Assembly: GCF_023055435.1 (NCBI RefSeq)
Contig: NW_025964001.1
Span: 20,088,001-20,152,000, forward strand
DNA: 64,000 nt
DNA from: Haliotis rufescens
Lineage: Eukaryota
Direction: 5' to 3'
This document shows positions 17,761 through 47,110 of the stretch, one piece after another (positions within the stretch are counted from its first letter, which is position 1; every line of letters begins with the position of its first letter). The translations under genes were made by a program, and so were the position numbers. The notes under the pieces were generated by a model that was not told where the DNA came from, did not search any database, and saw only the letters and a program-made list of their open reading frames with translations.

Positions 17761-18069
17761 TGGGGATTGTTCCTTTGGACCTTTTAGCCGCCTTTGATAA
17801 TGTCCGATGTCAGTTACCCCGAAGTTGTTTTATCACTAATGAATGAGTACTGACACCTATGGAAGAAACCGGAATCTCTTCATGATATATGATCCAAACT
17901 GTCATTTTTCGTATTGAACGTATTGAATCAGCTAGCTGCGTATGTACTAATCACGGCCACTTCCGTCAATTTTATTTTGACGTCATAAACACTGACATTT
18001 TCATTGGGATTTTTTGTCGGTAAATTAAACTCACGGGCAATTTTCAATGATGATATAAATGTCATATGT

Positions 18070-19681: not shown

Positions 19682-22600
19682 GTATGTATTTCTTTTATAC
19701 AGTACAGATTCCCAACCAGAATAGGTACCCCATAACCCACATGAAATTTGATTGATTATCATGCTGTCAGTAACTGGTTTGCTTGGCCAAGATGTGATTG
19801 TTATACGGACATCATATACCTGGAACATTTCTGACTGCAATGTACTGAATCAGTAATTATTAACACTAGGGTTAAGAAAAGGATCCCTTGACTTTCAGTC
19901 TAAAGTCTGAATATTGTAACTTCGGCCTACCTTTAGATTCAGCACCACAACATTTACCAACACATCACAATATCAGCGTTAGAAATTGGCACTAGTCCCG
20001 TAGTCCTTGCCTAACTAACCAATAGTTAAGGTGTCTTAAGGACTAGTAGAAATTTTCATTTTTTAAGGGTTTTGATGATATCATTAATGTTATCATTATA
20101 AGGCCTAGTGGACTAATTTCTACCACTGAATACCCTATGAAGTATGAAGTAATCATGGTAATGTGTGAATGTTTTTGGAAGGATATACCAGCAAAACAAT
20201 ACCCTGTGACATCAAGTTTTTAATGGGAGTTAATTTTATGTATTTTGTTTGTTTTTTGTAAACAACTCATTACTAATGCTCAAATGACAAAGCAAAAGTG
20301 AATGATTACGTTAAGGGAAGTGGCTGATACATATAAGTTTTTAATTGTGGGGATGATTTGATTATCAAAGGGACTGAGAAAACATTGAAAGTGCTGGAAG
20401 AAATGGTTTGGTTTCGAAAATATTTGAGCTTCAGGAAACTGTCATGGAACTTCCACACAAACCGCTTTAAGTTTCATTCATCACCATTTCACAGGGATTG
20501 CCCTCACAAGAATTTGTAGTGCTGAATTCTAAAGGTGCTCTGTAACTACCTGCACTTTTTGAAACAACCAGTTATCGAAATTGTTCATGTGCCAATTTTT
20601 TCAAATATGCCCTCCCTAATTAGATCAGCTACATTCTCTTTGGATAGGGTCCAGATGATGACAAGGAGGAGGAATCTGATTTGAGTGTGACCGAGATAAA
20701 GGAACAGAGAGAACGACAGAAAAAGGAAGCAGAGGTGCTCCACCAGGCAGAACTGATAGAGGAAGAAACTAGAATGCAGAAGGAGAAACAGAGGCTAGAA
20801 GACAAGGGCTGCACATGGGGAATAGGTAGGATACATAACTTCAACAATAGGGGCAACATACTATAAACAACAAAATATATTAATCCTTTACTAACAAAAT
20901 AAATGTACCTTTACTCTGGGTTAGGTTTAGATTTAGAACTTACACTCTCTCTCTCTTCAAATGCCTGACATGTTGTCGCTCTTAAAAGCAGAATCTCTAT
21001 CTACCTCAAGGCTGTTGGAATATAATGTAGTTGTGGGCCTTTGCTAGGCTTTTCAGTTATAGATGGAAACTTTCTTCTGTTGTGTTGTCGACCCGCTGAG
21101 ATCCGGCGTAGAATAGGTCTTCAGCAACCCATGCTTGTTGTAAAAGGCGACTATGCTTGTCATAACAGGCGACTAACTGGATGGGGTGCTCAGGCTCGCT
21201 GACATGGTTGATGCATGTCATCGATCCCAACTGCGTGGATATTAATCACAGGATTGTCTGGTCCAGACTCGATTATTTACAGACTGCTGTCATATAGCTG
21301 GAATATTGCTGAGTGCGGCATTAAACAACAAATCATCCAACCAACTGTTGTGTTGTCAGCAGTCTTATCACTGTGATTGACCCAGAGATAATATGACTGT
21401 TGCTTCTAACTGTAAACTAACCCATTTAAAAGCAGTTTAGAAAGAAAAGAATAAATGCTTTTATGATTTCAGAGATAGAAATGTTGTTTTTCTTGTGTGC
21501 CACAGGACACTTACAAAAATGTTTAGGCATGCCCTTTGGAATTTAAGAGAATGAATGCGAATGCATATTTGAACTTAAGCTAGATGATAAACGGTTGTTA
21601 TTTAGATGTTTGTCTCTTTCCTTTTCATTGAGATTGATAACATCCAGGGTGTTATTTAAAGAAAAGATATTCTTCTATAGTGTGCTGTTTAGGCACCGGT
21701 GATGTATTGTAACCATGCATTTATTTATGATTTTAACAGTGTCATTTCCACTCCAGTAGAAGGACTTTCAAACCCTGAATTTTCAAATGTTAAGACTCAC
21801 ATGAATTATCAGCTCAGTCAACTAAGCTCAAAAGCATCTACTTATTCCAAATGTTACTTGACTCTGACTCTTAGCTTGTGTGTTGCCATAAGCTAATTGT
21901 ACTGGGTTGAAAGTGACACAATGTAAGTGGTCCACTGCAATTAGCTGTCGTTACTGGCATATATTTCAGTGCTGATGGCACGCTTAAGATCATAACAACA
22001 TGGTGAAAATAAGTTCCAGGTGCTTGAAGGACACACTTAGAAAACATATAAATTTAACAACTCTAACTTGTGACAATGTTTGTTTTATGAAACCACAAAT
22101 ATATATTTAAAAAAACATAAAAAATAATGAAAAAATGAACTTGCTTAATGCACAGTGTGATTCATAAAAAAATATTTTGGTTTCAGAAATGAGAAAGAGT
22201 ATTATCACAATTATCGATCTCAATGGAAAGGAAGGGGGAAAGGATTCAAAATTACACCTGGTAATTAGCTTAGCCTTGGTGAAGTGGCATTATTGATTCT
22301 TCTGGTTAGCACACTTTAATTAAAAAAAAGGCACACATCAACATCTTTATGAGCGTCCTGTTGCGCACATAAAATATTATCCCATCCTTTTCTAGGGTAT
22401 AAACATGTTAATTAACGTCAAGCTGCATCAATTGCATCTTTCCTCCCACATTAAGCTGACACACTGTGATATAACTGAAATACTGTCGAAATTTATCACA
22501 CTCACTTCTTGCTTGAAAGAACTGTTGCCAGATGCAGACTTGAATTTAGTGGTTGAAGTTTGAAGAGATATTATATTGTACGGCTGGATGTAGTTGGATG

Positions 22601-25600
22601 AGTTATTATGGCATGTTGCACTCATACTATTTACTGTTTTCCTTGCTGTAGATGAAGATGCTGAAGAAGCTAATGAAGACAGTCCGTTCATGCCGTCTTC
22701 AATAATACCAGAAAATGAACATCTCTATATTGATGATCCTAAGAAAGCACTCAAAGGCTACTTTGAGAGAGAAGGTGGGGTACTTGAAATTTACGGAAAT
22801 TATCAATGAGAATTGCAGCTGAGACATTTTGTTAATAGTTGCGGTTTGCCGTTGACACTTTCGAGATGTTTGGAAGCGGCAGTCTGCATTATTCCAAAGC
22901 TGATTACAAGTATTGACTTCTGAAAAAAGTATTGTATTTACAAAACGAGATCAACTCCACTATGAACAATATATAACAGAAACTGAAATTGAGACTAAAA
23001 ACCTCATAATTAACAATTGAATTGACAGTTATTGATCTCACCATGATCACAGAGTATGAAACACACATTGTTATTTTTCAGGATATGATTTACCGGAATA
23101 CCAGTTTGTGGAGAGCGGACAAGGAAAACACAAGTGTATGGTGGAGTAAGTACAAGTTAAATGTTAACATCCTATTAAAAAATGTCACATTTTAGGTGCC
23201 ACAAAATATATTAATGCATCAATTAATTGACATATATGTTTTCTAAATCAATACATGTAAAAGTGATAGATCGCGAGTAACATATCTGCCAGATGAAAGT
23301 TGTAGTGCTGCTTAATATTTCCGAACAAGTTTAAACTGAAACGTGCAACACTAAAGGTTTCGTAACAACATCGACTTGGTAAATGTGAATATTAATTGTG
23401 GGCAATTTACATCTGCCCTTGGTCCAGTGAATATTTTCAATGGTTACCTCCAGTGGACCAAAGGTTCAGTTGAGCTTATGGCATGCCATGTTATTCCTTG
23501 TCTGTCCATCAATCTGTCATCTGTCTGTGCATTAAGCGTGCAATGTCTTCTCCAAACAGAACCCTTCAGCCAGTTTGATGATTTCTTGAAATTCTTCAAC
23601 AAAACCACAATACCGTATTCGACGTAATAAGCGCCCAGGGCGCTCTCAAAATTAGAAATAGGGGGGCTCTTATTAGAATATTATTTTAGTGGAAAAAAAC
23701 AGAGTTGAAAGATAAAGTTCGTGGTTTATGCTGACGGTCTGAACTGTTTATATACGACAGATATATTTTTCCAGATTAATTAAGGGGGCATATAACACAC
23801 GAGTGCGTATTATACACGAATAAATAAGTCTTGTGTACATTGATCAATCGGAAGGGATGCTAAGTGGGATTGTTCACTTGCCAATATATTAGCAAATATC
23901 GCCATGGGCGCTTATTAGAGCGGGGCGCTTATTACGTCGAATACGGTACTTCAATTTGGAAAAGGTTTAAGCATGATCTTCTTAAAGGCGACATTTTAGT
24001 AGGACAAGTAGAACTACCATGGGTCACATTTAATCATGGCATTTAGAATTAAGCATTTTTGTGAAAATTGAAACTTTAAGTGAATGTTTGTAGACATAAT
24101 TTGATGAAAATGTGCTTTATAATTATTATTTGTTTGTTTGTTGTTTAACGCCACACTCAGCAATGTTCCATCTATTTGACGGCGGTCTGTAAATATCTGA
24201 GTCTGGATCAGACAATCCATTGATTGACATGAAGAGGCCTTGTTGCCGTTATCCCTGCATCTTGCTCCTCTGTAGTGACCAGTATTTATGTGTGTGTGTG
24301 TGCAGGCTGCCTGTAGATACCCCGACTGGGGAGCCGGTTGTCGCAGAGGTGGTGGTGTCGGGGAAGAGGAAAGATGCCGTTGTTGCCTGCGCACTGGAGG
24401 CATGTCGCTTGCTGGACAAGCATGGGGAGCTTCGGAAGTCAAAACATGGTATTCATTTCTATTCTAACCATACAACAATGGATGTCTCCAAAACCTGCTG
24501 GAGATTTCCAGACATAGCGTAGACACTAGTTGGGGCTGTGTGACATGGTAACTAGGTGTTGCTAAGTAGAAGTTTCTTTTCATGTATATCCTACCCCTTT
24601 ATTTTAAAATTTGGTGACTTTGCAGATTAGTTTTAGAATAAAAGCAGTTCTGCAAATGGACTTTTCAGTGTTTTGATTTCTTTGGAAAACATAAATACAA
24701 ATCTCTTCCGTTTTCTTACACCATGCACACGTAATGTGTTGTAAACATGATGCAGGCCGCATAAAACACAAAAGTCCTTAGATTATCCTCCCCTCGATCT
24801 CAAAGGTTTTCTATTTGTCTGTCCCAAGCACCCAATTGTTGTCATGGAAACTGATTAAAATATTGTTGACTGTCTTTAACAACATTCTCAGTTGTTCGAC
24901 TGCTCGAAGCCTTAAACAAAAATCTCAGAATGTTTGCATGTACATGTTTATGAATGAGCTGCTACAGGACTCCAGGGCTGTATTGGTTTTGAAGACAAGA
25001 ACACATTTTGGGCTTGAGTGTATGAGTGTTGACTTGCTTGTCAGTGTTTGTGTGGGGTGTCACTAGTGATGGGACGATACGACGATACAGTATTGAATAG
25101 CGATACGAGGCCGACGATACAATACATCTATTTACAACCCCTGTATCGCGATACATATGATACATTTCATTACGAGTTATATTTGTGTAAAAACATGTGA
25201 ATAATAACAGAAACTGTTCAACCACAAGCTTATGCAGATTCTCTAGTATTTCATGGCTGGACATGAATAGCATGACTTTCACCGTGCCCTCTACCAATAT
25301 GTTTCTGCCTTACATATCCCATCTTTGATCTCTAAAATTTAATAACAAATACCGGTAATTCAGGGTTGTGATTCATTTGCAAGAAAAAAGATCAACTTGT
25401 GAAATAAAAGTACTGTATTATATCTCACCCATAGTATCGGGATATGTATCGTATCGCAACCCCACCGTATCGTGTCACCTCTACGTGTCACAAGCCAGAA
25501 CAACACAACGCTGTTTACATCCAGTAAAGCTTTAATTCAAAATGAGTTCAGAATTTAGTTCAACCTGGTAACAATATACACAATATTTTATGTTAACTTC

Positions 25601-28600
25601 TGGACATGGAAGGGTTTGTGTCAGCCAAATCTGATTTGAAAGCACATGGCTGGCAAGCAGCTGTCTTTGTTTACAAAAGACACAACCATTATTGTTGGTG
25701 TCGTTTGTAAACAAACTTTCATGGCATTTTGACATACCATTTTGACCAAACTTTCTGGTGCTGTTGTTACGTTCTAAACTTTTATAATCATGGGATGACA
25801 GTCATGATAGAATAACCAAATCTTTTTTTCAGAAAGTCACAAGAGGAAAGCAAAAAACTGGGAAGACAATGATTTCTATGACAGTGATGAAGATACGTTC
25901 TTAGATCGGACCGGTACCATAGAGAAGAAACGTGTGCAGAGAATGAAGAAAGCAGGGAAGATAGAAGACAAGGCAGAGACATACGATTCCCTTGTGAGTG
26001 GACACACACTGCCCAGTTCTATCTATCACAAAGACTATCATTACTAAATGCCATATTTGTGTTTTTAAGGACTGTACAGTGTTTTGGTTCTCTGGTAAAT
26101 TCAAGGGTTGTTGGCCTGGTGTCTGGTAGAAATATAGTACACCTTTTAACTGTGAAGCATTATCTCACCCCTACAGTATTACAATAATTATTTTGTTTTC
26201 ATTTTGCCGTAATGTCGTATATGGTTAAAGAAAAGAAGCATGGATGTTTAATGAAAGTGAAATAACTTGCAGGGAGGTCTGTTCTAAATGTCATGTTATA
26301 CACTTAAAATGTTACACTAATAGCGAGGGGCGGTCGGGTAGCCTAGTGGTTAAAGCGTTCGCTCGTCACGCCGAAGACCCGGGTTCAGTTCCCGACATGG
26401 GTACAATGTGTGAAGCCCATTTCTGGTGTCCCCCGCCGTGATATTGCTGGAATATTGCTAAAAGCTGCGTAAAACCAAAATCACTCACTCACTCACTACA
26501 CTAATAGCGTCAGTTCACAGGAATACTCTAGATACACATTCTTGATTTGATTGATGATATGATATTTTATCACACCTGTATATTGAGCTGTGTATGTTTT
26601 CAGATGACGAAACATACTAGTATATCCAAGGAAATTGAAGAAATTGAAGCCAAGCTAGAGAAGGCAAAAGCAGGTAAATTTGTTCACTTACGTCTCCTAG
26701 ATGTTATTTACTATATACACAAGATACAATTTTTGAGAAACCTAGAGACTTTCTATAGCATATGACAGGAGGCAAAGGTTTTATTCTTGACAGATTTCCA
26801 GGGTTCCAGGATTGTTGTCAAAAGCTTTGTGAACATCAGTCGCATACAGATCATTCTGACATGACCTGTAATGGGATGTCCTCAGATCTTTGTTTAGTGG
26901 TAGCGAGAACTAAGATCTAATTTTAATGAGATTGCTCCCACAATAGGCTGACACTCCATATATAAACTGTTTATCGTGGCATTAACCAAACTCACTCACT
27001 CACTCACTCACTCACTCACTCACTCACTCACTCACTAATCACCCCACCCCACCCCAACCCACCCCACCCACCCACCACATAATCATTGTCTTAGTCTCCG
27101 GATGCTACTGCATATTGAGAGTATATCAAACAACTTATTTTGTCCTGCTTTTAATAATGAAATATACTTCAAATGTCTAATATTCTCAGACGCTGCTGCT
27201 TTTGATAGTGAGGAAGTGGATGCTCTAGATGCCTACATGTCTGCAATCAAATCGGGTGTCATGGATACGAAGACAAAGATGAAGCTCAAACGTCAGCTGA
27301 TTGAGTTGAAGCAGGAAGAACAGAAGCTACGAAGACTAGTCAATCTAGCGAAGCCTGCTGCACTCCCAGAACTCAAGAAGTAAGTACTGTTCATTAGTGT
27401 GTGTGATTTCACAATGAACACTTCCTTGTCACCTTTACCAGTGTGCCCAACTGACTGCTTGTTCCTGATATTCTGGTAATTGTGGGCCATTGTATTGTGA
27501 TGGTGTTGATGTTGTTCATGCCGTTGATAACTTCACTGATGTGTTCCATGATGTAGCTGAAATATTGTGGACTTCAATGGGACACCATTAATTCACTCCC
27601 TCACATAAAATGATGTGAGCACCGTGAAGATCCAGGTTAGAATTGGTCTTCTGCAACCCAGGGAATCGGGTGGTCAGGCTCACTGATTTGGTTGATGTCA
27701 TATCCCAATTGCGTGGATCTATGCTCATGATACCAATCACTGATTTGTCTGGTCCAAACTCAATTATTTACAGACTACCGTCATGTAGCTGGAATGTTGC
27801 TGACTGCGGAGTTTAACAACAAACAAACAACCAAACAAATGATGTAAACAGAAGCAACATGTTCCGTAACAGAAAAAATGAATGTACTTTTCTGTGATAC
27901 TGATAACAGGCTCAGGGCTAGTCCCCTTGTCCTATGAGATCGCAACACTAAAATACAGAATATTACAGTGCAGTTGCATTACCGGTTAAAACATTTTCAT
28001 AATTATGGCAGTTTTTGAATCGACAATATCAAAATAGCTAGAAAAAATTTGGTAATTCTGTTGATGTCCTGTTTCTCTGCTTCCAGACCAGTCCCCCCTC
28101 CACCGAAGCCTGTGGTGAAAGCTGCTGTCCCTTCAGTTGGGAAGATTCATGTGGGACCCAAGAAACACTTGCCATTGGTGGTGAGTGTGCCCAACTTCAC
28201 CGTTACCGAGGTGTACAGCTTTCACAACGCTGTTCCTCACCTTGAGTGTAGTTGCTATAAATATACTAATCAAAGAAAGTTAAGGACCACTCGATTCTTT
28301 CATATTACTTAAAGGGCAAGTTCACACGGAAATGAACCTATTTTTCTTGTACTTTTTCCACATTAAAAGTGTTAACCTAGAAGTGTCATAGTCAAAAATA
28401 TAAAAATATCACTAATAATTGACATATTTTTTGCATTAAAATGATTTATATTTTTCACATTTACCAAGTGTTCTATTTCCATAACAAAAACACCATGGCT
28501 TATGCCCCTTACAATATGACGTCATTGGTGCCAATTGATAAACATTATGACGTCATCATGCTTTGTTAGAGCCGCTTCACGTGGTGTAGGTACAGGTATG

Positions 28601-31600
28601 TGATTCTAGCGTCTCAGATGCCAGCCAGCATAGTGTTATGCTGAGTCACCTCTGTGCCGGAGTGTGTCGTAGGCCATGTTGTTTTACCACAAACTGGTAC
28701 TTGATATCTTTTGCGTTGAGAATAGACAGGCACCCAGTTGAATTGGCACCAATTACGTCATAATCTAAGGGGGATAACTCAGGCCTGTTTAGCTCGAAAA
28801 ACGAAGGCCTCATAACGGCATTTCATTTTCACACTATTGTGAGCTTCCTACTTTCACTGTGAAAAAAATGAGTGTATATTTTCAAACACAGATACTAACC
28901 AATTCTAAAATTGCGTTTTGTTTAGAAAAAGATAGAAAGTGATTTTTGTGTGTACACTTCCCCTTTAAGTTAATCGTCATGCCCATGATGCTATGACAGA
29001 TTAACTATAGTAATGTGAAAGAATTGGGGAATCCTTAACTTGTTGTGAGTAGTATATGTAGCCTGGCCCTTTTTAATGAATAACATATTTGGAATAGTTC
29101 CATATCCTAGTGAAGATAATTTTCATGCAATGAAAAAACCCTGTTAATCCCATCAGTATGGTTCCCAGTGAAATCCTTTCGACTAACAGGGTTTCACTGA
29201 CAACTCGATGAAGTAGACCTATGAAATCAGTTTAATGTCATATCTGAAATTAACTTCACGTAATTATGTTTCAGTGACTTATGTCAGAGGAAGGGCTTTA
29301 AGAGGTTAATACCCAAAATTAACTACTCACATGAAAGTTGAGGCTATAATGAATTAGTAATTCTACTTTCATCCAAATTTCTCAAAATGCGATGCACGAC
29401 ACATTATATTTTGTATATAATTTTTCTGTTGTACAAACTGTTCAAGGCATCTATGTTCATTAACTATCGACTGATATGATTCACATGAAATGTGATTTAT
29501 TTGCTCACAGTACAATATTTTCATTTTTTCACAAGAGATGAGTATGCTGTTTTAACAGAGCATTGTGAACTTACATCACAATAGTTTGGAGTAGTTCTTG
29601 TAGACATTAGTATAATAAATAGATCTAGAGATTGATAGTCTGTATATTTACTAGGATTACTTAGTACATTAAAAATGTTAGTAAATTTTGGGAGCCATGC
29701 TTTACCGCGCGCTATAACCGAGTTAGCACTACATCTAAGAGCGCAGTAACGAGGGACCACTGTATGCATTCCTGTCAATTAACAATTTTGGTTCATATCA
29801 GCATTAAGTGAAATTTATCTTTTACACATTTCAAAGGACATGTACAGATGGTACCAGGAAATTTCCATTCATAAAACATTTGGTTATCGTATCCTGATCG
29901 GAACTGGTAAAGGGATACACAGACTGTCTGTACACAAATGAGTGACATAAATTGAGATAATCTTCACATAAGAACTGCTGCTGAAACAGAGTTAGCATAT
30001 TATGTGTACAAAAGCTATAACGTATCTGTTACCTGTACTTCATTAATTATAGCCTACACAAACAACAAGTGCAATATCGGGAGATGCTGGTGAGGAAGAA
30101 GAAGAAGAGGAGGAAGAGGATGTTACATCTACGAACTGTAACAGGAACACCTCTGTAGCTGGTAGTGAGAGACTGCAGCCCGAGGAGCCGGACAGTACGT
30201 CAGGCAGGGTTAAAGCTCCTGCCAAGCAGACTCCTTCCAACCAATCAACTGAGAGCGTGTCCTCAAGCACTGTTAAAGGTCCTGCAATGCCTCCGCCCCC
30301 TTCAGCTCCCAGCCAACCAGCAGAGAGTGTGACGTCTAGCTGCGTCAAAGCACATGGCAAGTCCTTTCAGGTTCCTGCTGGTTCCGGAGACCCTGACAGT
30401 ACAGAGGGTATGTGTGGCATGGTTAAGGTCATGGCTGGAGAAGTTTATGCAAAAATGGCTCAATTTATGTACCAGTATTGCAATACCTAGATCATATCTT
30501 TCTTCAAGTATGGGGATATGTATCAATACGTGGGAAAGGCCTTGTGTATAGTATGTATGAGCTGAATGGCCTCATGCTAGCCATTGAGGGATGTACAGAA
30601 ACATTCAGATAAAATGTGTGTGTGTGTGCGCTTGCGTGTGTGCTTTTTGGGCTTTGTTTTCAAAATGGAAATAAAAACAAAAAGTGTGGCGAACTTTATG
30701 ATGATGCAGGGACCTGAGAACCAAGACTATTACTTTTTTAGCCTTAACAATGATTTATTTTGGGAGATATATTTTTGTGTCCTACAAGCATGTTGTGTGG
30801 CCAGTAAATGTCAGGACCTGTATGTGTTGATGGTGGCTAGCCTTTCACATAGTAAGATTTTATGAGGCTAATGATAAAATCCTTTACAAAATAACTGTAT
30901 TTTTTTGTATGCTTTGTGTGACTGTATCTGTAAAAACAGACTATGTATTTGTTGTTGGAGTTACAATATATTTGCATTTAGATGGTGCAGCACATGTACT
31001 TTTTCCTTGTTTTAAATAAGAACTTCATATATTTCAGAGCAAAGTCAAAAGAATGTTGATACAAAATCCAAGAAACGATCGTCTCTGGAAGATGTCAAGG
31101 TAGGTGCTGCTTTATATCAGATATATTATTCCAATATCACAGTCATCTGACGTCACATGTAATAATGCAGCACTTCACGTCTAATGCAGCTGTCTTATTA
31201 GCCTATGGTCATGTTAACCCCGACAGCTGAGAGTTGCTGTAGCAGGGATAACATGACACTCTTGTTACTGTGGTGATAAGTGTTGAGGTCAATGTATGTC
31301 ATGGTATGTTATCCATCCTTGTATGTTTTAAACTCTTACGAGGCATGGGCCCAGTGTTCTAAGGCACTGCAATTCATTGTGCAGATTTGCATCCCTTGGG
31401 CACACCAGAAACCTATGATCGTGGGTTCGAATCCTGGTTCACCCGATTATGTTTCTAGGTTTTTCCTCACAATGCCCGTGTTAGAGGGTTTCACCAAAGA
31501 GGTAATCGTCTGAGACCTGTATCATTTCGGGCTTTCCTCCCACAGTAAGCCAACATATTGTGAAATATTTGGAATACTGTTAAGAGCAGTTTTAAAACCA

Positions 31601-33285
31601 GCTCACTCACTCGAACCTTTACATTTTCCACAAGACTTATGAAGCTGAAGCTTTGCATGGTGGATCTCAGCGATGGCGTCACCAAAACATGCTCACATTT
31701 AAACAAGGCTACCTTGGAATGCCATTTTTGTCTGATCAAGAAGTTGGTTGTTATTCAGGTGAAGAGCAAGAAGCCAAAGACTGGTGGCAGGGGGAGGACC
31801 GGGGGCTATGATGACACAGATCCAGACTATGCTGTGTGGATGCCACCACAAGGTATGGTTCCGAGGCAGACACGAGAGACATATGTTCCTCTCAAAATGT
31901 ATGGTTTCTGAGTTATCTCATGTTATTTGTTAAATTTGTGCGATAGGTTGAGTTGGTTTGAAATTTTAGGTTTCTGTCAGCTTATAACTGCAGCAGCTTT
32001 AGTTTTGAAATAGGAAGAAGACAAATTGCCAATATCCCAAGCTCTTTCAAACATATCACAAAACGACATAAGCCTCATTACACCAAAAAATGCTAATCCT
32101 AAAGCTTGAAAAAATAGCCCAATCCCCCACCTCCAAAATAAACAATTCCTGAATTGACATATGATGCTGTGCTTGTTTTGTAATCTACACTGCATGATGA
32201 GCAGCGTCCCTCTCAAGTAACCAAGTCACTAAGCCTGACCATCCAGTCAGTTGCTGGAGACCTATTTTGACATGGAACCCAACATGGATGTATGATATAT
32301 ATCACATCTGATGTGCTTACAAAGTTTCATCGAGAAATATTTAATGGTTATGCTAGTTATAGCCTTAGCAACACAACATCTAAAAAAAGATTTTTTTAAA
32401 AACCCACATGAATAGCAAAGACACCAGTTCAGCACTTGCCTGATGTGTACACCACGTTTCACAAAGAAATGAGAAAGTTTGATTTATGAAACGATCTTTA
32501 TGCTCTAGAAATGAATCTAGGTCCAACTTGATGCCTTGAAAATGCAAAAACATAAATGTTTTCAAAACGTCCTGAATAGTAAAAGAAACCAGTTTAATGA
32601 ATGTCTGATGCGTGAACAAAGTTTCATTAAGAATATTGAATGGTTTTTTTAGTTTGGGTCTGGAAACAATCCCTATCCTCTCTTGAACCTGTCTATCTTG
32701 TTGACTTGAGAATGCAAAACATTTCAAAATTTCCTGAATAGTAAAAGGCACCAGTTCAATGCATGCCTGATGTGTGAACAAAGTTTCATAAGGACATATT
32801 GAATGGTTTTTGTTTGTTGTAAAAAAAGCAGGTGTGTCATTGAACAATACCTAGTTCATATAATCCTGCCAGCTTGAAGTTTCCCTGGTATGAAGAATGT
32901 TGAATTTTTTTATGTTCTACACTTATAAGATGACTTCCTAAGCACATAGTTTATGTAAAATACTGTTTTTTAGGTAGCTTCACACTTATAAGTTGATTTC
33001 ACTGCATATTTTGCATTGTTTTCAAGGGTAACTGTGTTTAGGCACTACTCACCATTCTGTTACACTTGTGTTGATATGCAAGTTAACACTAAAATGTATT
33101 CATTGTAGGTAGCCATGCACTTAAAACAACCAGCATTAACATGTCTTTTTGAGCCAAGTGTTTCAGAATGCTGTATTGAAGATAGCCTTACTGAGTAAAA
33201 GTATGTACTTATTTATAATACAATATGTGTTGCAGGTCAGAGTGGTGATGGCAAGACCCATCTGAATGCAAAATATGGATACTGA
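18956..33285 (+). CDS. SLC4A1AP: Kanadaptin (SLC4A1 adaptor protein; FHA domain plus dsRBD-like region), whole gene span, 13 coding exons
   Basis: Exons 18956-19681, 20648-20825, 22652-22774, 23082-23145, 24306-24448, 25833-25993, 26604-26673, 27190-27379, 28087-28180, 30053-30407, 31038-31099, 31759-31852, 33236-33285, all with GT-AG introns and compatible phases. FHA motif (FGRLPSCD..HPSLSRYHA..DLDSTHGTWIN), NWEDNDFYDSDEDTFLDRTG and C-terminus DPDYAVWMPPQGQSGDGKTHLNAKYGY* are characteristic of kanadaptin. Confidence 0.95.
19974..20128. mobile_element. Small (~150 bp) MITE; copies at 41055-41200 and 41656-41803
   Basis: CAGCGTTAGAAATT...AATTTCTACCACTG TIR and shared ACTAGTCC subrepeats. Confidence 0.75.
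20648..20825 (+). CDS. SLC4A1AP: Kanadaptin exon 2
   Basis: GPDDDKEEESDLSVTEIKEQR...GCTWGI; AG/GT flanks, phase 0 to 1. Confidence 0.92.
21090..21344 (+). mobile_element. SINE-like retroposon without a tRNA head (family D)
   Basis: 13-bp TSD CTGTTGTGTTGTC, (CAA/CAAA)n tail; many copies in the window. Confidence 0.88.
22652..22774 (+). CDS. SLC4A1AP: Kanadaptin exon 3
   Basis: EDAEE..LYIDDPKKALKGYFERE; AG/GT flanks. Confidence 0.92.
23082..23145 (+). CDS. SLC4A1AP: Kanadaptin exon 4
   Basis: GYDLPEYQFVESGQGKHKCMVE; tttttcag acceptor, gtaagt donor, phases fit. Confidence 0.88.
23613..23946. mobile_element. Tc1/mariner/pogo-type MITE
   Basis: Perfect 24-bp TIR CCGTATTCGACGTAATAAGCGCCC, TA TSD. 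Confidence 0.92.
24306..24448 (+). CDS. SLC4A1AP: Kanadaptin exon 5 (dsRBD-like)
   Basis: LPVDTPTGEPVVAEVVVSGKRKDAVVACALEACRLLDKHG. Confidence 0.92.
25064..25483. mobile_element. hAT-like MITE
   Basis: TAG...CTA termini, subterminal CGATAC repeats, 8-bp TSD GGTGTCAC/CGTGTCAC. Confidence 0.75.
25833..25993 (+). CDS. SLC4A1AP: Kanadaptin exon 6
   Basis: RKAKNWEDNDFYDSDEDTFLDRTGTIEKKR..AETYDSL; gtgagt donor. Confidence 0.93.
26326..26496 (+). mobile_element. tRNA-derived SINE (family A)
   Basis: TAGCCTAGTGG and GGTTC boxes, CACT tail, 13-bp TSD TACACTAATAGCG. Confidence 0.9.
26604..26673 (+). CDS. SLC4A1AP: Kanadaptin exon 7
   Basis: MTKHTSISKEIEEIEAKLEKAKA coiled coil; AG/GT flanks. Confidence 0.88.
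27190..27379 (+). CDS. SLC4A1AP: Kanadaptin exon 8
   Basis: DALDAYMSAIK..KLRRLVNLAKPAALPELK; gtaagt donor. Confidence 0.92.
27617..27836 (+). mobile_element. Family D retroposon
   Basis: TSD AAATGATGT; same body and CAAA tail. Confidence 0.85.
28087..28180 (+). CDS. SLC4A1AP: Kanadaptin exon 9
   Basis: Pro-rich PVPPPPKPVVK; ttccag acceptor, gtgagt donor, phases fit. Confidence 0.82.
28313..28964. mobile_element. Non-autonomous Kolobok-like DNA element
   Basis: TTAA TSD, AGGG...CCCT termini with about 15-bp imperfect TIR; internal inverted repeat 28504-28533 versus 28741-28773. Confidence 0.75.
30053..30407 (+). CDS. SLC4A1AP: Kanadaptin exon 10 (acidic, low-complexity)
   Basis: PTQTTSAISGDAGEEEEEEEEED..GPAMPPPP; open frame, AG/GT flanks, phase 0 to 1. 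Confidence 0.82.
31038..31099 (+). CDS. SLC4A1AP: Kanadaptin exon 11
   Basis: QSQKNVDTKSKKRSSLEDVK; tttcag acceptor, gtaggt donor; restores phase 1 to 0. Confidence 0.78.
31759..31852 (+). CDS. SLC4A1AP: Kanadaptin exon 12
   Basis: VKSKKPK..YDDTDPDYAVWMPPQ. Confidence 0.92.
32400..32812. repeat. Degenerate ~163-bp tandem repeat (about 2.5 units)
   Basis: TGAATAG..ACCAGTT..CTGATG..GTTTCA recurs at 32409, 32573 and 32735. Confidence 0.7.
33236..33285 (+). CDS. SLC4A1AP: Kanadaptin exon 13 (terminal)
   Basis: GQSGDGKTHLNAKYGY then TGA. Confidence 0.93.
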
Positions 33286-36015: not shown

Positions 36016-36274
36016 CTAATCTTCATTATCTGACTGTTGCCTCTGTTCATCCCTGCTTGGAGAGCCATCTTTATCTGGTGTTCTGGATTTAGAGCGAGAA
36101 TACGAGCGTGATCTTGATCTCTTAGCTGGACTGGCTGATCTGCTCCTGTTGCTACGGGGGCTCCGGCTCCTGCTCCTGCTGCGACTAAGGCTCCTGCTCC
36201 TTGACCGGCTCCTTGATCGGCTTCGACGAGATCGAGAACGGCTGCGACTCCTGCTACGGCTTCTTGAGTAAGAT
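36016..36274 (-). CDS. SRSF5: SR protein coding exon 7 (RS domain and stop)
   Basis: [26 protein letters not shown]...DNED then TAG. Confidence 0.93.
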
Positions 36275-39200
36275 CTGCAGCAGAAGAGATGATGGCATAC
36301 TGATATTGTTTTTTATTTATTTGTATATTTGTTGTTTAGGCTTAAAAAAATCTAGGTTCTGAGGCACTGCTGCATCATCACCAAGTCTGCCGGATGTTTT
36401 TGAAAAAAATTTTTTTTTTAAATCCATATATTTTCTGCGTCACAAACACACAACCCCGGCAGTGAAATGCTACAATACTTAAAAACATCACGATCCAATA
36501 TAGCATGCAGTTACTTCCCTATACATGTGCACTGCTTTACTGCGCACCTCATGTTATGGTCATGGCAGTAATAGGAGTTTGCATGCTTGTTTTGCCGTTT
36601 GCAAATTGGGTCAAGGAAAACCTGAAACTTACAATGTCAAAAAGAGGGTATAAATGTAATGACCAATCATTAGATTACACAATTACCTCCTTCTTTTGGG
36701 TCTGTCTTCAACAATATGGATCCTTCTTCCATTGATTTCTGTGTTGTCCAATTTGTCAATTGCTGCCTTCATATCTGAGTGGGTAGCAAACTCCACAATA
36801 CTACAAAGAAACAATTCATAATATCAGGTAACGACAATCAAATAACACAAATTATGTTTTAACACTATGACACAATGACCTTCCCCTATCTTGCTTCGAA
36901 AAATGTATGGTAGCATATACCAGACAGGAATATTCAGTAATTGTTTTAGTAAGTACAGTTTATGAAATACAAAACATGTGAAGTGACTTTATTAGACCAA
37001 GATGCTATTTACATACCCTTCATTCTTATGCTTTTTGTGTGCATCTGCATAGGTGACCTCTCCAGCTTGACGCATGTAGTCCTTCAGGTCCTTTGTAACA
37101 GAGGGAAACACGGGTCACAAAATAAACTAACCTGTACCTAACAGTTACAGTAACTTACACATTTACATACACAACTACATACCTAGATATGATGGCAATG
37201 AGCAACAGAGTGAATGGTGTTTTATGCCATTGTCATTTCTACAGCAGTAGAACATAGACACACAAAACTTGTGGCTGACAGTGAGATCAATTTCACACTG
37301 GTTTGGGCAAATGTCACAAACTCAGCTAGGTCCAAGGCCAACCAGGCATAAGTCATTGTCATCAGCTATTGTGAACAGATCATAAGATCATTCTTCGCCT
37401 TTTAGGGCAAGCATTGGGTACAGTGACACCTACATCCATTTTCCTCAAATTCTCTTAGTTTTCTGTTTAGATATGTGACTCAAAGTTGGTGCAGAAAATA
37501 CATCGGCCAGCAAAAGACTGTCCCAATGTATTGCACATAATTCTCTTGATTACCTACAAAATAATGTACATAATGATAACTTAAGGCCTTAGGCTTCACG
37601 AAAAGTGAAAAAGTTTCACACAACATGTTCACTGTCATAATATAACCACAACTATTCCACAGCCCTGATATCTACCTTCCAGCTGAGCATGATCTTCCTG
37701 TATTTCTATTCACAATTTATGACGTTTAATTAATTACAAGTGGCATATTCCTCTTTGGAACATTATTTGGAATTTTGCGGTATGAATTTCACAAAGAATC
37801 AAAAAGATGTAGGCTGATTTACCAAAGATTAAAACTTGAACTGAAAATGCTGATATTAGACCTTTAGTTATGTTTGGTTTCTCGTTATTTGACAAGCAAT
37901 GTTTCAATTAAGTATCATGTAAAACAAGCCCATTAAGCATCCCCAAGTCTGGGGAGACATGATCTTTGTTAACACACATCTGAAAAGAAGACAAGCCCAG
38001 CATAACAAAACAAGATAAAAAAGATTCAGACATTTGTTTTGAAAGAGAAAACTCTTTGTTTGTTACCTGCTGCCCGAAAGCAATAGTCAAAGCTGGAATG
38101 GAACCCTATGAGGCTGGCACTCAACCTCAGAGGTCAAATGGACAGCACACGTCACAGGTCAGTCAATTGGCCATGATGACAACATCGAGGAAGCGGGACA
38201 CGTCTAGGATTTGTTTTTCTATCGACATTACATCTGAGGAGGGCAGACTCTACATTTAAGGCCAATTCATCTACAGGAGTCATCATGACGTCTGGTCACA
38301 AAACGGTCAATTTCCCTTTTACAACTTTTAACTTCAGGACGTCTGAAGGTTTCCAAATGTTTCCCTTTCGGAAAAGTGATTTTTCATCTCTTGACAGGTA
38401 TACACCTGATCAAGGGTGCTGCAGGGTCATCTTTCTGTCAGCCCTGAGAGTCCCTCGTCTGACTCCCATGCACGGACCAAGCACGTTCAACACTAGGTGC
38501 CCGTCATCACACCTAAGGACCCTCGGGTATGTGTGACCATGACCTCTAAGAATGACTTTTGCCCCCGTCTAGCCTCTCGTCATCTTTGCGGTCATCTTTG
38601 AGGGAAGGAAGATAAGAATTTAAAATGAAGAATTTGCCAAAGACTGTTTTCTACTCATATACTAAGCAGATGCTATTTGTGTGCTTATAAACAATTACTA
38701 TTAGGATCTTTTTACCTCATTTGCTTGACCAAACCATACACATGAAGTCAAGGACACAAACTAGGAAAAAGAACCATTCTGCAACAGTTTCATTGAAGAG
38801 GTTGTGCTCAACCGGATTTTAAAATGTAATTTCAAAAGCATTTTAACGTTAATTTGTGTATAGTTGTACCATTACCATGATAACAAATTAAAAAAAGAGA
38901 AAAAGTTTAAATAAACAAATTAACACAAGGGTATTCACAAAATGGTATTGATTTGAAATGTTAGTACATTATTAGTCTAAATATCTGAAATGAAATCTAC
39001 CATCTTTTACACATGGAATTACAACAGACAGTGCAGCCTACAAGTAACTCCTCTGATCTTTGATCAAGAAAGTCAATTCAGACTAAACCTTGTGACAAAG
39101 ACAGTACCTTAGTGAATCATTTATCAACTTACTCTTCAGCTTTAATTCGGGTCAAACAAAAGAAACTTTACATCTTACATGATTCATAAAAACACCACTC

Positions 39201-42018
39201 ATTTTTGAGACACCTAGTGAAAACATTTCCTCAGATGAAAATGAGACAGGAAAAGCGAAACTTCACAACTTTCAGTAAACACAGACCTGCCAGCTGACCC
39301 TTGAAGAAAGGTTTTCAATGATAAGACGAAATTCCGTCCTTGTTGGGGGTCCGTATCTGAAGCAAAACATTATAATTCTTAACAATCTTTACATAAAATT
39401 ATACATAATTTCCAAGTTAATTTTTCTGAACATTGAGGTAATACAATTACATATTTATTGCTTACTCAAACTCACTAAATTTGTTTGTTTGTTGTTTAAC
39501 GCCGCACTCTGCAATATTCCAGCTATATGACGGCGCCTCTGTAAATAATCAAGTCTGGACCTGACAATCCAGTGATTGACATCATGAGCATTGATCCACT
39601 CAATCACAACATGATGGCATGCATCAACCAAATCAGCGAGCCTGTCCATCCAAACCGTTAGTCGCCTCTTACGACAAGCACTGTCACCTTTTAAGGCCAG
39701 CATGGGTTGCTGAAGACCTATTATAGCCCAGATCTTCACGGGTTTCGAACTCACTAAAATCAGATGAGATCTTAGCTTCTGTTAAGCGAAGGCCTGAGGT
39801 ATTCCCATAATGGGTCACATCAGAAATACCTTTCTTCTACCAATCAGAGCATTGCTTACCATATCGGGAAAGCGACAGTTGGAACATGTTTTCTAATCAT
39901 GCAGCCTTGAAGAGGTTTACACAGGACATTATCTGAACGACAGTTAGGGGCTGTAAGACTGATTCCATCAAAGACATCGCTTCAATGAAAGTTCGAGAAG
40001 GCTGCTTTCTGATTAGCTAATGTTGACTTCTGGTTTGTCATTACATTGGTCAGCAAAAGTTTGCGAAAGGTCATTCTGACGCAATCTGAAATGGTATTGC
40101 CTCAGATCTTGTGTATCAGTAGTAAGCACCAAGATCTGATTTTAATCGCAAGTTTGTAAACTACAATATTTCTTCCCGTCAATTATCTCCACAAAACCAG
40201 AATCTTTACATACAATTTGTGCGAATCAATAAATATCAAGTAGAAGAAAACTCACTTGTCTCTTCCGCCGCCACCGCCACCACCACCACCACCTCCGCGA
40301 CGTCTGGACGGATAGCCGCGATCTCGCCAATCATCACCGCCGCCACCACCTCTTGAGCCTCGGGCATGCTCAACAATTACTCTGAAACATTTCATTGTAC
40401 ACTTAAAAGCACTTACTTAGAAATATTACTCGCATGAATTGAGACGACTTTTGAGTCTTAGCTTGGGTTAACGTTTCTTTTAGCAATATTGCAGCAAAAT
40501 CAAGGTATGAGACATTGTAAAATGTACTAATGCATAGAATGAAACTCAGATTTAAAGTGTGCTTGTATTTGCTTGCAACATCAGATCAACACACTATCCC
40601 TACCATCCACTGGTTTTGATGAATCCAAGCACCAGATCAGAAAAATTCAAACAAACCCAGAAAATATTTCTAACGCTAGCAACTGACTGATGTGGGTATA
40701 ATGACGCCTAATAGAAATTCAACAGAGCAAAGGTGACATCACTAATCATAAAGCTGGCTGGTAGTATGACTACTCAGACATCAGATAGGGCAATTCTACA
40801 AAATTTGAGGGAAAAAATCTTCAATTTTGAAATGAGCAAAAGATAATCCTGTACCAAATGACCAAATGCAGGATTTAATTATATCTTAGCCTTTATCATT
40901 GTCAAAGCTGTTGCAACATTTTCCATGCTAAATGGTCTAACGAACATAAGGATTTGTACTAACCTTTCACCACAGAGTTCCTTTCCATTGAGCTCATACA
41001 CAGCATCTTCAGCATCACGATAATCCTCAAATTCCTGAAATTAAACACACTAGTCAGCAATGAAACTAACAGGCCCACTAGTCCTTATAACATATAGCAA
41101 AACCCTAAAACAAAGTGCCAAATTCTACTAGTCCTTAGGATACCTTAACTATTGGGCAGTTTGGCAAGCACTATAGGACCAGTGCCAATTTCTAACGCTG
41201 CTTGTGAATTGATACACAAATTAATGCAGTTGTTTGTCAAGATTTGTTTTCAAACAAATCTTGTTATTGTCACTAAATATATATGCATATGTAATTCAAT
41301 TTTCTAACCATGAAAAGTAGAATAAGGCATACATTGATGATACATAAAAATCTCTAGATTTTGTCAGGTAACAAATTTCATGAAGTCAGTAGCAACACAT
41401 ACAGACCATATTGAATACTCTGAATCGTGAATACACACTTAGAAAACACCAAATAGGATCATATTTCAATGTCATGCTAAATTAATTCAATCCCAAAGAA
41501 GAATATATCTGTAAAATATGTTACAAGTTTAAATCTAAATATCTCGAGCGGTATGTGTATAGGTATTAGGTAGAGTGAACACGACGAAGGACCCCTTTGT
41601 GGGTCTTATATAAAAGTCACAATATTACTAATGCAGCTTTACACAAAACATTATCCAGCAATAGAAACAAACATTAGTCTACTAGTCCTTATAATAACAT
41701 TGAACAAATCCTAAAAAGGACAAATTTCTACCAGTCCTTTTGATACCTTACCTATTGGGCAGTTTGGCAAGGACTATAGTACTAGTGCCAATTTCTATTG
41801 CTGATTACGAAAGTATATCATTTACACACAATATATATCATTGCTTATTGTCACTTGGATGGCATTTCTATTTGTTTGCAGTTATGAATACATACCACAA
41901 AACCATATCCATTTTTCAGCATGAGGTCTCTCATTCGTCCATAGTTTCTGAAGAACCTCTCCAAATCCTTTTCTCGAACATGGTACGACAATCGCCCAAC
42001 ATACACCCTTGTTCCCAT
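36016..42018 (-). CDS. SRSF5: SR splicing factor of the SRSF4/5/6 (B52/SRp55) family: RRM1, Gly linker, pseudo-RRM2 (SWQDLKD), RS domain; whole gene span, 7 coding exons
   Basis: Exons (minus strand) 42018-41896, 41034-40964, 40381-40256, 39356-39287, 37090-37017, 36800-36687, 36274-36016, all GT-AG and phase-compatible. [73 protein letters not shown] and an RS tail. Probably co-orthologous to vertebrate SRSF4/5/6, so the symbol is approximate. Confidence 0.95.
36687..36800 (-). CDS. SRSF5: SR protein coding exon 6
   Basis: [36 protein letters not shown]. Confidence 0.95.
37017..37090 (-). CDS. SRSF5: SR protein coding exon 5
   Basis: [24 protein letters not shown]. Confidence 0.95.
38067..38595 (-). 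other. Candidate poison (NMD-inducing) cassette exon / conserved non-coding element in the SWQ|DLKD intron
   Basis: Pyrimidine-rich acceptor ttcttatcttccttccctcaaAG, donor CAG|GTAACA, in-frame TAG at codon 9, repeat-free and GC-elevated relative to flanking intron. Confidence 0.75.
39287..39356 (-). CDS. SRSF5: SR protein coding exon 4
   Basis: [23 protein letters not shown]. Confidence 0.95.
39480..39747 (-). mobile_element. Family D retroposon
   Basis: 11-bp TSD AACTCACTAAA. Confidence 0.88.
40256..40381 (-). CDS. SRSF5: SR protein coding exon 3 (Gly-rich linker)
   Basis: [35 protein letters not shown]; gtgagt donor. Confidence 0.93.
40964..41034 (-). CDS. SRSF5: SR protein coding exon 2
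   Basis: [23 protein letters not shown]. Confidence 0.95.
41896..42018 (-). CDS. SRSF5: SR protein coding exon 1 (RRM1 N-terminal half)
   Basis: [41 protein letters not shown]; acceptor ttccag at 42025-6, donor gtatgt. Confidence 0.95.
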
Positions 42019-45000
42019 TTTTTCCTGGAATAAATACAAAATCTAAACAAACAGGATAAACATCAAGAATGTATCATTTCAGGATACCATTGAATTCCTT
42101 TTCAGGCTGGTGATTTTGCTTCTTTTAAGTCACACTACAAGAAACATCCTTTGCCACGAAGGTCCAAAGACAATCTAACAAAGTCACGGAGTCTGACAAA
42201 AAAAATCCATTTATTCTGTAGTTACCTTTTACAAGCATTAGTAGCTATGGATCTTTTCCAACCCAAATTCCCATTGGGACTTGGTGTTATGTACTTGGCC
42301 CGATTTACAAAGCATTTGCAGGGCTACGAACATGATGAACATCATAAAACCAACTGTAATTTTGTAACAAAATTACGACCAAAAATTGTTAAGCAATCAA
42401 CACAGCAATCTAAGTGATAATGTTTTGTAAATTAAGATAAGAATTCATATAGTCTAGACCTATTGTAGTGACTTACAGCAAACAAAGTAAGATGTTGGGA
42501 GCATCTGCACCTTGTTACCTAATAGCAATTGACTCTTCTCGCTAGAACATTTCATGTGATATAACATTTTGAATAATTTCTTCACCTAACAATCTTCAAA
42601 ATGTTCCCAGAATATTGAACCTTTCGGAGTTCATTTTCTAAAAGTAGTAAACAAACAACTTTTAACAACCTTAAAATGCTCCAACATATTCATAAATTCA
42701 TATTCATAATTACAGATAGGTGCATGCATGTATACAAAGGTTTTCCTGGTGAAGCCTAGACATTACTTGGAACCTCCAACAATTTTCACTTCCATCACAA
42801 GAGAGTGATAATCTTATGATTGGATTAAGATAACCTCTCACATGGCGAATCTAATTTTGAACGCTTTGTGTCTGGTTACCCAGGTTTCTAAATCTGATTA
42901 CTGATTGTATTACATCTCAGTCACAGTGATTCAAATGGTCAATAAAGAACATGTCCTAATAGGTTTTGTTTGTTCAAATATTGGATAACACTGCAGTCAG
43001 CAATATTCCAGCTATATCACGGAAGCCTGTCAAAAATTAGGGCTGGGTCAGTCAAACCTGCGATTGGTATCATGAGCCATGACCCATGTCCTTAAGTTAC
43101 AATCACACAAAACCTTGTCATAGTTTGAATGCACATTTCACCTCTCATAACAACCATAGGTTAAAGGGGGGGACCTTTCTTAACCAACATCTAAATGTGA
43201 CCGAATTGGTTTGATAAAATATAAAGGGCACAATTGTGAAAATAGAAGGAAAATAATACCCTTTCAACAGCTGCTTTTCTGATGGTGATTAATTAAAATA
43301 TATCTTATTTCATTTCTTCTCAATATTTTAAGTAATTTTGCAAGAACCTGCATAGGCCCTTCCAATTCTTTCTGTCTAATAAGTCAAGCTGGGAAGAATG
43401 TATTTTGTCATTGTTTGCTGGCCTAATATGTATGTATTGTCCATGGAATTATATATTATATTTTTTGAAAATGATCAATTATTTATTTTATGCAGCTATG
43501 TACAAGAGTTGATTTGGCGGGTCAAAAGGGGTCTTACTCTCTTCTCAAAATATTGTTGGAGGGTAGTTAATACTAGTTATCAAGAGTAGGTACAGGCAAA
43601 GTTCATGTCTCCCACTCAGCTAATATTGTCTAATATATATTAAGGTCTACAACTAGTTTGTGATATTTCAGTTTGAAAGCATTTCCTTGCTTAGCAATTA
43701 GTGCAGTTTTATTATTCTTATGACATTCCCTCAAACTCAGGTTCAGTATGTGAAGATGCCACATTTCATCGAGAATGTTTTCATCAAATTTTCTTTTTTT
43801 TTAAATACAAAAGATAAGTCACATTTGAATGGGTGTCAATGTAGAGAAATTATACAATTTTAATGACACACACCTGTCGGAGTACACTGAAAATATATTG
43901 TTTGGGGTATTGCACATTGATTGATATAGGCCAATATGTGGTTATCCCAAACATGTTGGAAGAAATTCACCCCAGAGTAGTGCACTTTAAGGAGTGCATT
44001 TTTTTTCACTCCAATTAGCACCACATGGAGGATCAAACTCATATTACCAGCTTGAAGCTGAGCTTGGCTAATGACTTAATCTATTTAGCAAACATTTTAT
44101 AAATGGACAATAGGTGCTGTAACAAATAATTAGTGTTTGTCTAACAAATGATCAGCACCCAATTGTTTTCCTTTAAGTACATGCATAGTTGCCTGTTTTT
44201 CTCTGCAAAACGAGAAACTTGAAAAACAAACGTCTGACTACTGTGACTAGTGTCCCGTGCCATTCTCACTTTGCGAAGTGACACCTATCAGAGGAACGAG
44301 ACACTGGATACCTTAAGTTGTTTAACGCCACACTCAGCAATATTGCAGCTATGACGGCAGTCTGTAAATAATCAAATCTGGGCAACACAATGCAGTGATT
44401 GATATAATGAGCATCAATCAATTGGGATACAATGAGATGCATCAACCACCAGATATTGTTAATGACCTCTTAAAACAAACATTGGTTTGCTGAAGACATT
44501 CTAACCTGTATCTTTAAGGGTCAAACTGGATATCCTGACAATGGATATAATAAAGAGCTGCAGCCAGGTTGTCATGTTTTGGGTTTTTTTGTTCATTAGT
44601 GTATACACGACTTGCATGGGTGACTGGATGCAACTGTTCAACATTATAATATGTGCAGTAAAAATTACTAAAATAAAATACATCATCTCCTATTATGAAA
44701 TTCAGGTAAAAGAACAGGTGAAAAACTGTTCTGTTCTGCTAGGCAGTGCATTAATTCAGAAACTTAGATTACCATGTGTATTTTCTCTTAAACTGAGCTG
44801 CAAATAGCTGTCAGTTGTACACAGTTTCTACCAATCTATCAGCAACTTAGTTTAAAAAATACCCAATATAATGTCAAAGAATTTTGATGCAATGATCAGA
44901 AGAATTGCATAACTTGAAAACTTATATTTCATCAGAAAATATTTATTCCAATACTTCCAAAATTCATGACATTTTTACGATACAATTCCCATGTTGATTT

Positions 45001-46938: not shown

Positions 46939-47110
46939 GCACCCACAGTTCTTTCCAGCAAACAAAATGTCTACTTTCACGTAAAACTAGTACCGCTGTT
47001 GAACTGCGCCGGCGCCTTTGCGCGTTTAGTCAAGGAGCCAAACGCCAGAAAACCAACCAAGCCGAAATCTCGGCAGTCAGAAACCCAGTCTATTGTCACG
47101 TGACAATAAG
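46939..47110 (-). promoter_or_regulatory. Putative promoter and non-coding first exon of the SR gene
   Basis: GTAAGT donor on the minus strand at 46933-46938, CpG-enriched patch, palindromic E-box TATTGTCACGTGACAATA at 47091-47108. Confidence 0.6.

Follow-up and report, generated by a model that had tools for sequence, protein, structure and literature searches.

A probable poison cassette exon between SWQ and DLKD in an SRSF5/B52-type gene of Haliotis rufescens

The host gene and its SWQ|DLKD intron

The stretch of DNA analysed here, which we call the window, comprises 64,000 nucleotides of the Haliotis rufescens genome. Its minus strand carries, at 36016..42018, a gene of the SRSF5/B52 type whose coding part is divided into seven exons (42018-41896, 41034-40964, 40381-40256, 39356-39287, 37090-37017, 36800-36687 and 36274-36016), all of them with canonical ends. 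The product is a protein of 278 amino acids with two RRMs and an RS tail, a member of the SRSF4/5/6 subfamily in which no zinc knuckle was seen; an RRM_1 domain match falls on the first coding exon. When the RRM region was compared with 143 proteins, the best named matches were gastropod (Bradybaena, Gigantopelta) and the next ones came from oysters and a limpet. Among the matches listed, the nearest named relatives of the 278-residue protein are likewise SRSF4/5/6-like proteins of gastropods and bivalves. Neither this protein nor its truncated forms appeared among the matches listed in the protein searches.

The intron of interest, referred to below as the host intron (37091..39286, minus strand), is 2,196 nt long and in phase 0. 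It lies between the coding exon that ends in SWQ (39287..39356, minus strand, donor CAG|GTCTGT) and the one that starts with DLKD (37017..37090, minus strand), the acceptor of which is a weak AAG. This is the exon structure of the SRSF5 type, and its splice joint is seen in each of the four transcript assemblies described below. Fish records named srsf5a part ways directly after SWQ, and those named SRSF4 or SRSF6 after DLK, three residues further on. A phase-0 intron between SWQ and DLKD is the mark of the SRSF5/B52 exon structure. We take the same position to be that of intron 5 in human SRSF5. A preliminary description of this DNA had assigned the gene to the SRSF5/B52 family of SR proteins, and the intron to the ancient unproductive splicing event of that family; the exon structure and the SWQ|DLKD position bear out both assignments.

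Several other features were noticed in and around the gene. A possible non-coding first exon, with a GTAAGT donor at its end, lies at about 46939-46990 on the minus strand, and the contigs of two assemblies (X2 and X10) depart at 42025-42026, consistent with an upstream exon. The first coding intron holds two repeat copies (41044-41203 and 41645-41806) that are 79% identical, and more of them are found near 19970-20117. A dispersed repeat in the intron preceding the host intron (39480-39745, minus strand), which is probably a SINE, has about ten more copies in the window at 69-87% identity and shows a very high contig depth. Tail to tail with the SR gene, at 18950-32000 on the plus strand, stands a multi-exon neighbour gene with an FHA domain, presumably a kanadaptin/SLC4A1AP-like one.

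The 529-nt block and its signals

Inside the host intron lies a block of 529 nt (38067..38595, minus strand), the candidate poison cassette exon. Its GC content is 0.48 (0.484, against 0.318 upstream and 0.362 downstream, both within the host intron), a level attained by 3.2% of the 529-nt windows across the 64 kb. When the most GC-rich segment of the intron was sought blind to the proposed sites, it came out at 38608-38066; the likelihood ratio was 35.6, and no more than 18.2 in any of 30 shuffles. The edges of composition thus fall 13 nt and 1 nt away from the proposed splice sites. No matching copy of the host intron was found elsewhere in the 64-kb window, repeat scans of the block and the intron returned nothing, and contig depth over the intron is free of the repeat pile-up shown by the neighbouring introns. 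A search of the host intron for Rfam matches, with E up to 5, found none. The folding z-score of the block is -1.8, 5 of 100 shuffles being equally stable, and C-box-like and D-box-like words occur in it.

In phase 0 after the SWQ exon (coding length to there 390 nt), the block opens with eight codons and an in-frame TAG (38569..38571, minus strand), which ends at nt 27 of the 529 and lies 502 nt before the block donor. With the block included, three junctions follow the TAG and the truncated product has 138 residues; read-through into the host intron meets a stop four codons in, giving 134 residues. By the general 50-nt rule, NMD is expected when some junction follows the stop by more than about 50 nt, and the 502 nt after the TAG are well over that distance. 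In the frame of the block that runs into DLKD there is no Met after the last stop, and hence no Split-ORF restart inside the block. The preliminary description had placed the block, its bounding letters, its donor and its early TAG exactly where the sequence has them; it had also called the block GC-elevated and repeat-free and its stop far upstream of later junctions, and these claims stand as well. The acceptor, which it had called strong, is weak.

This candidate acceptor (38596..38640, minus strand) combines a pyrimidine tract and a 46-nt AG-free run with a non-consensus AAG (38597-38596). Its pyrimidine score (15 of 17) is the highest of the AGs screened; with an A at -3, the site ranks 13th among the 124 AGs of the intron. 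The ranking matrix, trained on 51 acceptors of other animals, is a rough cross-species instrument, which scored one real acceptor of the host gene below zero and placed the real DLKD acceptor, likewise an AAG, at rank 50 of 124. For the latter acceptor (37091-37093), the AAG of the window recurs in 13 of 52 clusters of loci from other animals, whereas the next acceptor is AAG in 0 of 19 (Fisher p 0.015); the count includes cDNA-like loci and lineages that are not independent of each other. The candidate donor (38061..38069, minus strand; CAG|GTAACA at 38066) follows the consensus on the exon side and misses it at +5 and +6. The top-scoring acceptor of the whole intron (37980..37999, minus strand; rank 1 of 124) ends in TTTTCAG and lies 87 nt past the block donor. 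It could start a second unproductive exon or end an 87-nt mini-intron; the SWQ donor joined to it would lead to a stop at 153 amino acids.

The block is also set apart by its short words. It holds 16 copies of GAYG, against 5.7 in shuffles, none of 3000 of which attained 16, and the density of the word is 30 per kb compared with 2.9 and 5.1 in the flanking parts of the intron. Enrichment in the block extends to GAY, GAYG and GAYGAY, and was not found for GAA, GAAGAA, CUG, ACHGS or USCGKM, which were tested in the same block. In homologous introns of other animals, GAYG is more frequent in sense than in antisense in 19 of 23, and more frequent in the intron than in its flank in 19 of 23, counts that are not fully blind, since the word was picked after viewing the enriched words of the block and the pooled words of the 23 introns. 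TGAC, one of the top words of the block, was rejected as a common motif, being sense-enriched in only 14 of the 23 introns (p 0.29); GAYG is therefore the only word claimed as common. In the available text of PMC9022966, GAYGAY is listed for SRSF7, whereas the entries for SRSF4/5/6 are words of the GAAGAA, CUG or USCGKM type. Of these classes, the block is enriched in GAY alone, and its words fit that class better than the ones listed for SRSF5. The motifs thus lend no support to autoregulation by the gene's own protein, and cross-regulation by another SR protein is as possible as autoregulation.

Transcript cover, variation and the same intron in other animals

None of the 21 sequencing runs listed is recorded as RNA, and 14 of them are RNA by our guess. 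Four assemblies were used, one per study (X1, X2, X10 and X12), which are likely RNA and carry no strand; among the runs left out are three small-RNA runs of raw reads and four large ones without a label. The productive SWQ-DLKD joint is present in all four likely-RNA runs, and the whole 2,196-nt host intron is covered in the same four. In X2, X10 and X12 a single contig (37063-39315) spans the intron, and in X1 two contigs do so; these intron contigs extend only 28-29 nt into the flanking exons, under the 31-letter bar for bridging. In every one of the four runs the contigs cross 38595/38596 and 38066/38067 unbroken, with more than 100 nt on each side, and the cover shows the intron parts beside the candidate exon to be retained. 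The contigs are unbroken across 37980 as well. The 15 joints listed for the four likely-RNA runs, with 189 more outside the listing, include none at 38595 or 38067; contigs drop rare forms, so that the exon-included form is limited by this to at most a minor share. Given unbroken contigs without listed exon joints, the visible form is retention or slow removal of the whole intron. That the exon-included form is unseen in the contigs could be expected of a scarce NMD target. The RNA evidence also moves the focus from exon inclusion to whole-intron retention as the visible regulatory pool. As a minor point, two X1 contigs meet at 38453-38467 with a 15-nt overlap, at a short hairpin that has a GACG word in its loop and no splice signal.

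The other introns of the gene present a different picture. Five of the six coding junctions are listed as joints in all four runs; the sixth, 40256>39356, is not among the 15 joints listed (189 further). The next intron (37016-36801) is joined across in all four runs without a listed piece inside it, and the remaining introns hold, among the pieces listed, only short ones, the longest of 691 nt (X12, in the intron preceding the host intron). End-to-end cover is limited to the host intron among the pieces listed. Cover and joints were used for this comparison instead of ratios, because contig depth is unfit to rank the parts of a gene.

The contigs also reveal a stretch free of substitutions. 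Relative to the window, the host intron differs at 14 positions in X1, 1 in X2 and 19 in X10, which amount to 26 sites, and none of the 26 falls in the block. The gap extends over 821 nt (37910..38730, minus strand; X1, X2 and X10), that is, the block with about 135 nt upstream and about 157 nt downstream of it, and includes the acceptor at 37980. Under uniform placement the block would be missed with p ~8e-4 and an 821-nt gap would arise with p ~1.3e-4, values made optimistic by linked sites and drawn from three haplotypes about 1% from the window. X12 was left out of the test; 19 of its 32 differences are listed, and none of those 19 lies in the block. Most indel positions are absent from the difference listings. 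Constraint on the block above the intron background is seen at a shallow depth only, that of three close haplotypes. Together with the edge signals that recur in other animals, it speaks for the block behaving as an exon under constraint.

Homologous introns of other animals were collected through a pattern of acceptor and DLKD exon, which gave 75 loci, no mollusc ortholog intron among them, or 52 clusters after near-identical ones were merged. The counts below rest on 23 introns held whole and at least 400 nt long, one 59-nt intron and 28 partial ones being left out, and the 23 loci are not phylogenetically independent. When the host intron was compared by blastn and nhmmer with the 75 loci, some holding the intron only in part, the lowest E was 0.7. 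Local alignment to 40 cluster representatives of at least 400 nt reached a z of 4.4 at best, from long, gappy, motif-driven alignments that do not amount to homology. What is common to these introns lies in the edges of their GC-rich blocks. An AAG acceptor with a pyrimidine tract stands within 30 nt of the block start in 10 of the 23 introns, compared with 2 in antisense and a mean of 3.0 (maximum 9) in 300 shuffles that keep the GC pattern. Canonical YAG acceptors at the block start show no enrichment (6 of 23, against about 4-6 expected). A MAG|GTAA(A/C) donor stands within 30 nt of the block end in 7 of the 23, against 0 in antisense and a mean of 0.12 (maximum 2) in 300 such shuffles; this donor class was fixed after inspecting the loci and matches the donor of the window. 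The AAG signal is missing from 13 of the 23 introns and the block-end donor from 16. Counted anywhere inside the intron, the donor occurs in 10 of 23 (antisense 2; mean 2.2 and maximum 5 in 150 shuffles), and GC drops across it in 15 of 15 loci, partial introns included. The block in the window has all three features: the AAG acceptor, the MAG|GTAA(A/C) donor and the GAYG enrichment.

Two groups of loci deserve separate mention. At 24 of the 75 (e.g. L074, L044 and L038) the DLKD exon is fused to the next exon with intron sequence upstream; many of these are probably RNA-derived contigs with the host-type intron retained, and some may simply be without the next intron. In a divergent paralog group (L021, L028, L040 and their relatives) the exon reads QAGEVTFTQCHRDRIGE, and the introns are long, with conserved internal blocks and canonical internal donors, and without the GAYG and GTAAM signature.

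There are further indications from short protein relatives, of which 120 were listed out of 523 found. After SWQ, 50 of the 120 listed have a tail that is neither DLKD nor a V-starting read-through, some of these tails being artefacts of gene models or contig ends; the others listed comprise 36 with a V directly after SWQ, 25 with DL, 4 that end at SWQ and 5 in which SWQ is missing. The AAG acceptor of locus L046 is matched by the tails of ant and unnamed protein records, and that of L003 by the tail of a record clustering with Daphnia; with an internal donor, these acceptors delimit exons of 693 nt (L046) and 572 nt (L003). Two cDNA-like loci, L038 and L011, have SWQ joined to an internal acceptor, and in L038 the rest of the intron is retained up to DLKD, its CAG|GTAAAT donor unused. 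Two neighbouring acceptors are indicated in related species by L003 and L038. Together, these sequences support the use of internal acceptors of the SWQ|DLKD intron in other animals, and such use probably extends to molluscs, to judge from the post-SWQ tails in two gastropod records (slug P0146 and sea slug P0276).

Known systems, alternative readings and a possible common design

We consider it likely that the block is the abalone version of the ancient poison cassette exon of SRSF5/B52, lying within an intron that remains unspliced in four likely-RNA assemblies. The reading builds on features that are directly seen: the anatomy, the productive splice, the intron cover, a block devoid of substitutions, and the common edge and motif signature. 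The poison-exon mechanism has already been published (Lareau and Brenner 2015, PMC4379411) and is known in human, fly and other animals; in the available text of that survey the unproductive event of SRSF5/B52 is described as essentially universal in animals. Its Table S1, in the version accessible, lists no mollusc or other lophotrochozoan, and a literature search, thin on subscription papers, found nothing on this event in molluscs; a single locus such as the present one mainly fills the mollusc gap of the survey. As described in the same source, intron 5 of SRSF5 (SRp40)/B52 resembles the abalone intron in subfamily, exon structure, intron and an internal stop-carrying exon candidate, and also in being a surrounding intron that is abundantly retained around a strongly constrained exon. 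In the human EST counts given there, retention has 87 and 68 and the exon junctions have 20 and 5, and abundant retained-intron transcripts are reported for fly B52 in the accessible part of PMC4528329. Exon junctions and NMD have been demonstrated in the SRSF5/B52 system (PMC4379411); in the abalone, the exon is a candidate with predicted junctions and predicted NMD.

Two mammalian systems are particularly close. In mouse Srsf5, according to the text available, the poison exon has detained introns on either side that NMD does not act on (Boutz et al. 2015, PMC4281565), and inclusion of the exon is promoted by Srsf4. The abalone gene may resemble it, in that cover among the listed pieces sets one internal intron apart from its neighbours and this intron flanks a predicted NMD-switch exon. 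The mouse introns are further marked by nuclear location, poly(A) status, NMD resistance and response to Clk inhibition. Human SRSF5 binds around its own poison cassette exon, the inclusion of which drops from 10% to 4% on depletion (Arnold et al., PMC10726014, in the part accessible), which supports, in human SRSF5, an SR protein on the exon region setting inclusion. By analogy, these mouse and human precedents would fit the mechanism proposed below. SRSF7, as far as the available text of PMC9022966 goes, offers a likeness of another kind, a dense GAY-type array in a retained regulatory intron of an SR gene. The abalone case differs from the SRSF7 Split-ORF in host gene and intron, in that no zinc knuckle is seen and in that there is no in-frame restart AUG.

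In the mechanism we propose, the pre-mRNA would pause with only the SWQ|DLKD intron left in, and this intron-retained form would stay nuclear. The intron would be slowed by weak competing sites: the poison exon and the DLKD exon each have an AAG acceptor, and the donor of the former does not match at +5/+6. Skipping of the block would then give the full protein of 278 amino acids, and its inclusion would bring a stop after eight codons, with NMD as the predicted outcome. Inclusion would be promoted by an SR protein sitting on the GAYG words of the exon; with the choice tipped in this way, rising SR activity would lower output. For this species, the exon inclusion, the NMD, the nuclear detention and the identity of the binding protein are inferred.

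The same intron cover could be read differently. The block might be a decoy exon or detention element that is hardly ever ligated; splicing factors would gather on its weak splice sites and its GAYG array and hinder removal of the intron, and output would be throttled by nuclear whole-intron retention, not by NMD. Whole-intron cover is indeed the sole unproductive form seen, in all four runs, and the available texts provide parallels: detained-intron transcripts of mouse Srsf5 are not stabilised by Upf1 knockdown (PMC4281565), SRSF7 keeps an intron with 76 binding motifs that builds nuclear bodies (PMC9022966), and retention is the only mode in fungal orthologs (PMC4379411). However, an NMD-degraded form is expected to be scarce and lost from contigs, SWQ is spliced onto internal acceptors of the same intron in other animals, ESTs included, and an acceptor and donor pair is kept at both edges of the block. 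We hold the decoy unlikely.

Less likely still is unproductive splicing with other edges, either through the AAG acceptor with the downstream intron kept, or through the acceptor at 37980 joined from SWQ or from the block donor; every variant would still have an early stop. The first rank of 37980, its place inside the substitution-free stretch and the 153-residue stop from the SWQ donor speak for such edges, as do the cDNA-like L038, in which an internal acceptor is used and the CAG|GTAAAT donor passed over, and the two adjacent acceptors indicated in related species by L003 and L038. Against them, the GC elevation and the GAYG words begin at 38596 and stop at 38066, not at 37980, and the contigs run unbroken over 37980. 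Finally, other identities of the block are very improbable and already largely refuted, whether a non-coding RNA hosted by the intron, the remains of an old repeat, a DNA-level element, or a GC-rich patch that arose by chance on a common haplotype: the C-box-like and D-box-like words are compatible with the first, and shared ancestry can explain low variation among three close haplotypes, yet there is no Rfam match at E up to 5, a fold z of only -1.8, no copy elsewhere in the window and no repeat pile-up, and the strand-specific motif and splice-site signature is common to the same intron of other animals.

The probable poison exon may also say something about the design of such exons at large. 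The common splice-site and motif signature is the new element of this work. Sequence requirements of these exons are stated as not yet dissected in the available text of PMC4379411, where the AAG acceptor, the MAG|GTAAM donor and the GAYG array go unmentioned; our literature search, thin on subscription papers, found no description of an AAG/GTAAM/GAYG signature either. We suggest tentatively, rating the chances somewhat below even, that invertebrates share a common design without alignable sequence, in which a pyrimidine tract closes on a weak AAG acceptor, the GC-rich body, about 350-700 nt long, is dense in GAYG words, and the donor is MAG|GTAA(A/C), which would pair with U1 on the exon side and not at +5/+6. 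If true, this design would supply the cis code that has been missing for one of the oldest alternative splicing events known, and the pool of intron-retained message would be gated by a factor that reads GAY words (SRSF7-like, or B52 itself with an unrecognised specificity). The AAG acceptor, the GTAA(A/C) donor and the GAYG array are three features open to mutation, and the signature offers a means of locating the exon in unannotated genomes.

A few features of the rest of the window may be recorded here. Two near-identical, frame-shifted transposase-like pieces at 5477-8272 give an HTH_32 match below the cut-off; we take them, by their look, to belong to the Tc1/mariner family. A 21-nt tandem repeat at 13450-14400 is open in several frames, and a tandem repeat of longer period occupies 58850-59530. 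At 16794-17783 there is an open reading frame of 329 amino acids without a Pfam match, which presumably resembles the tail of a LINE reverse transcriptase.
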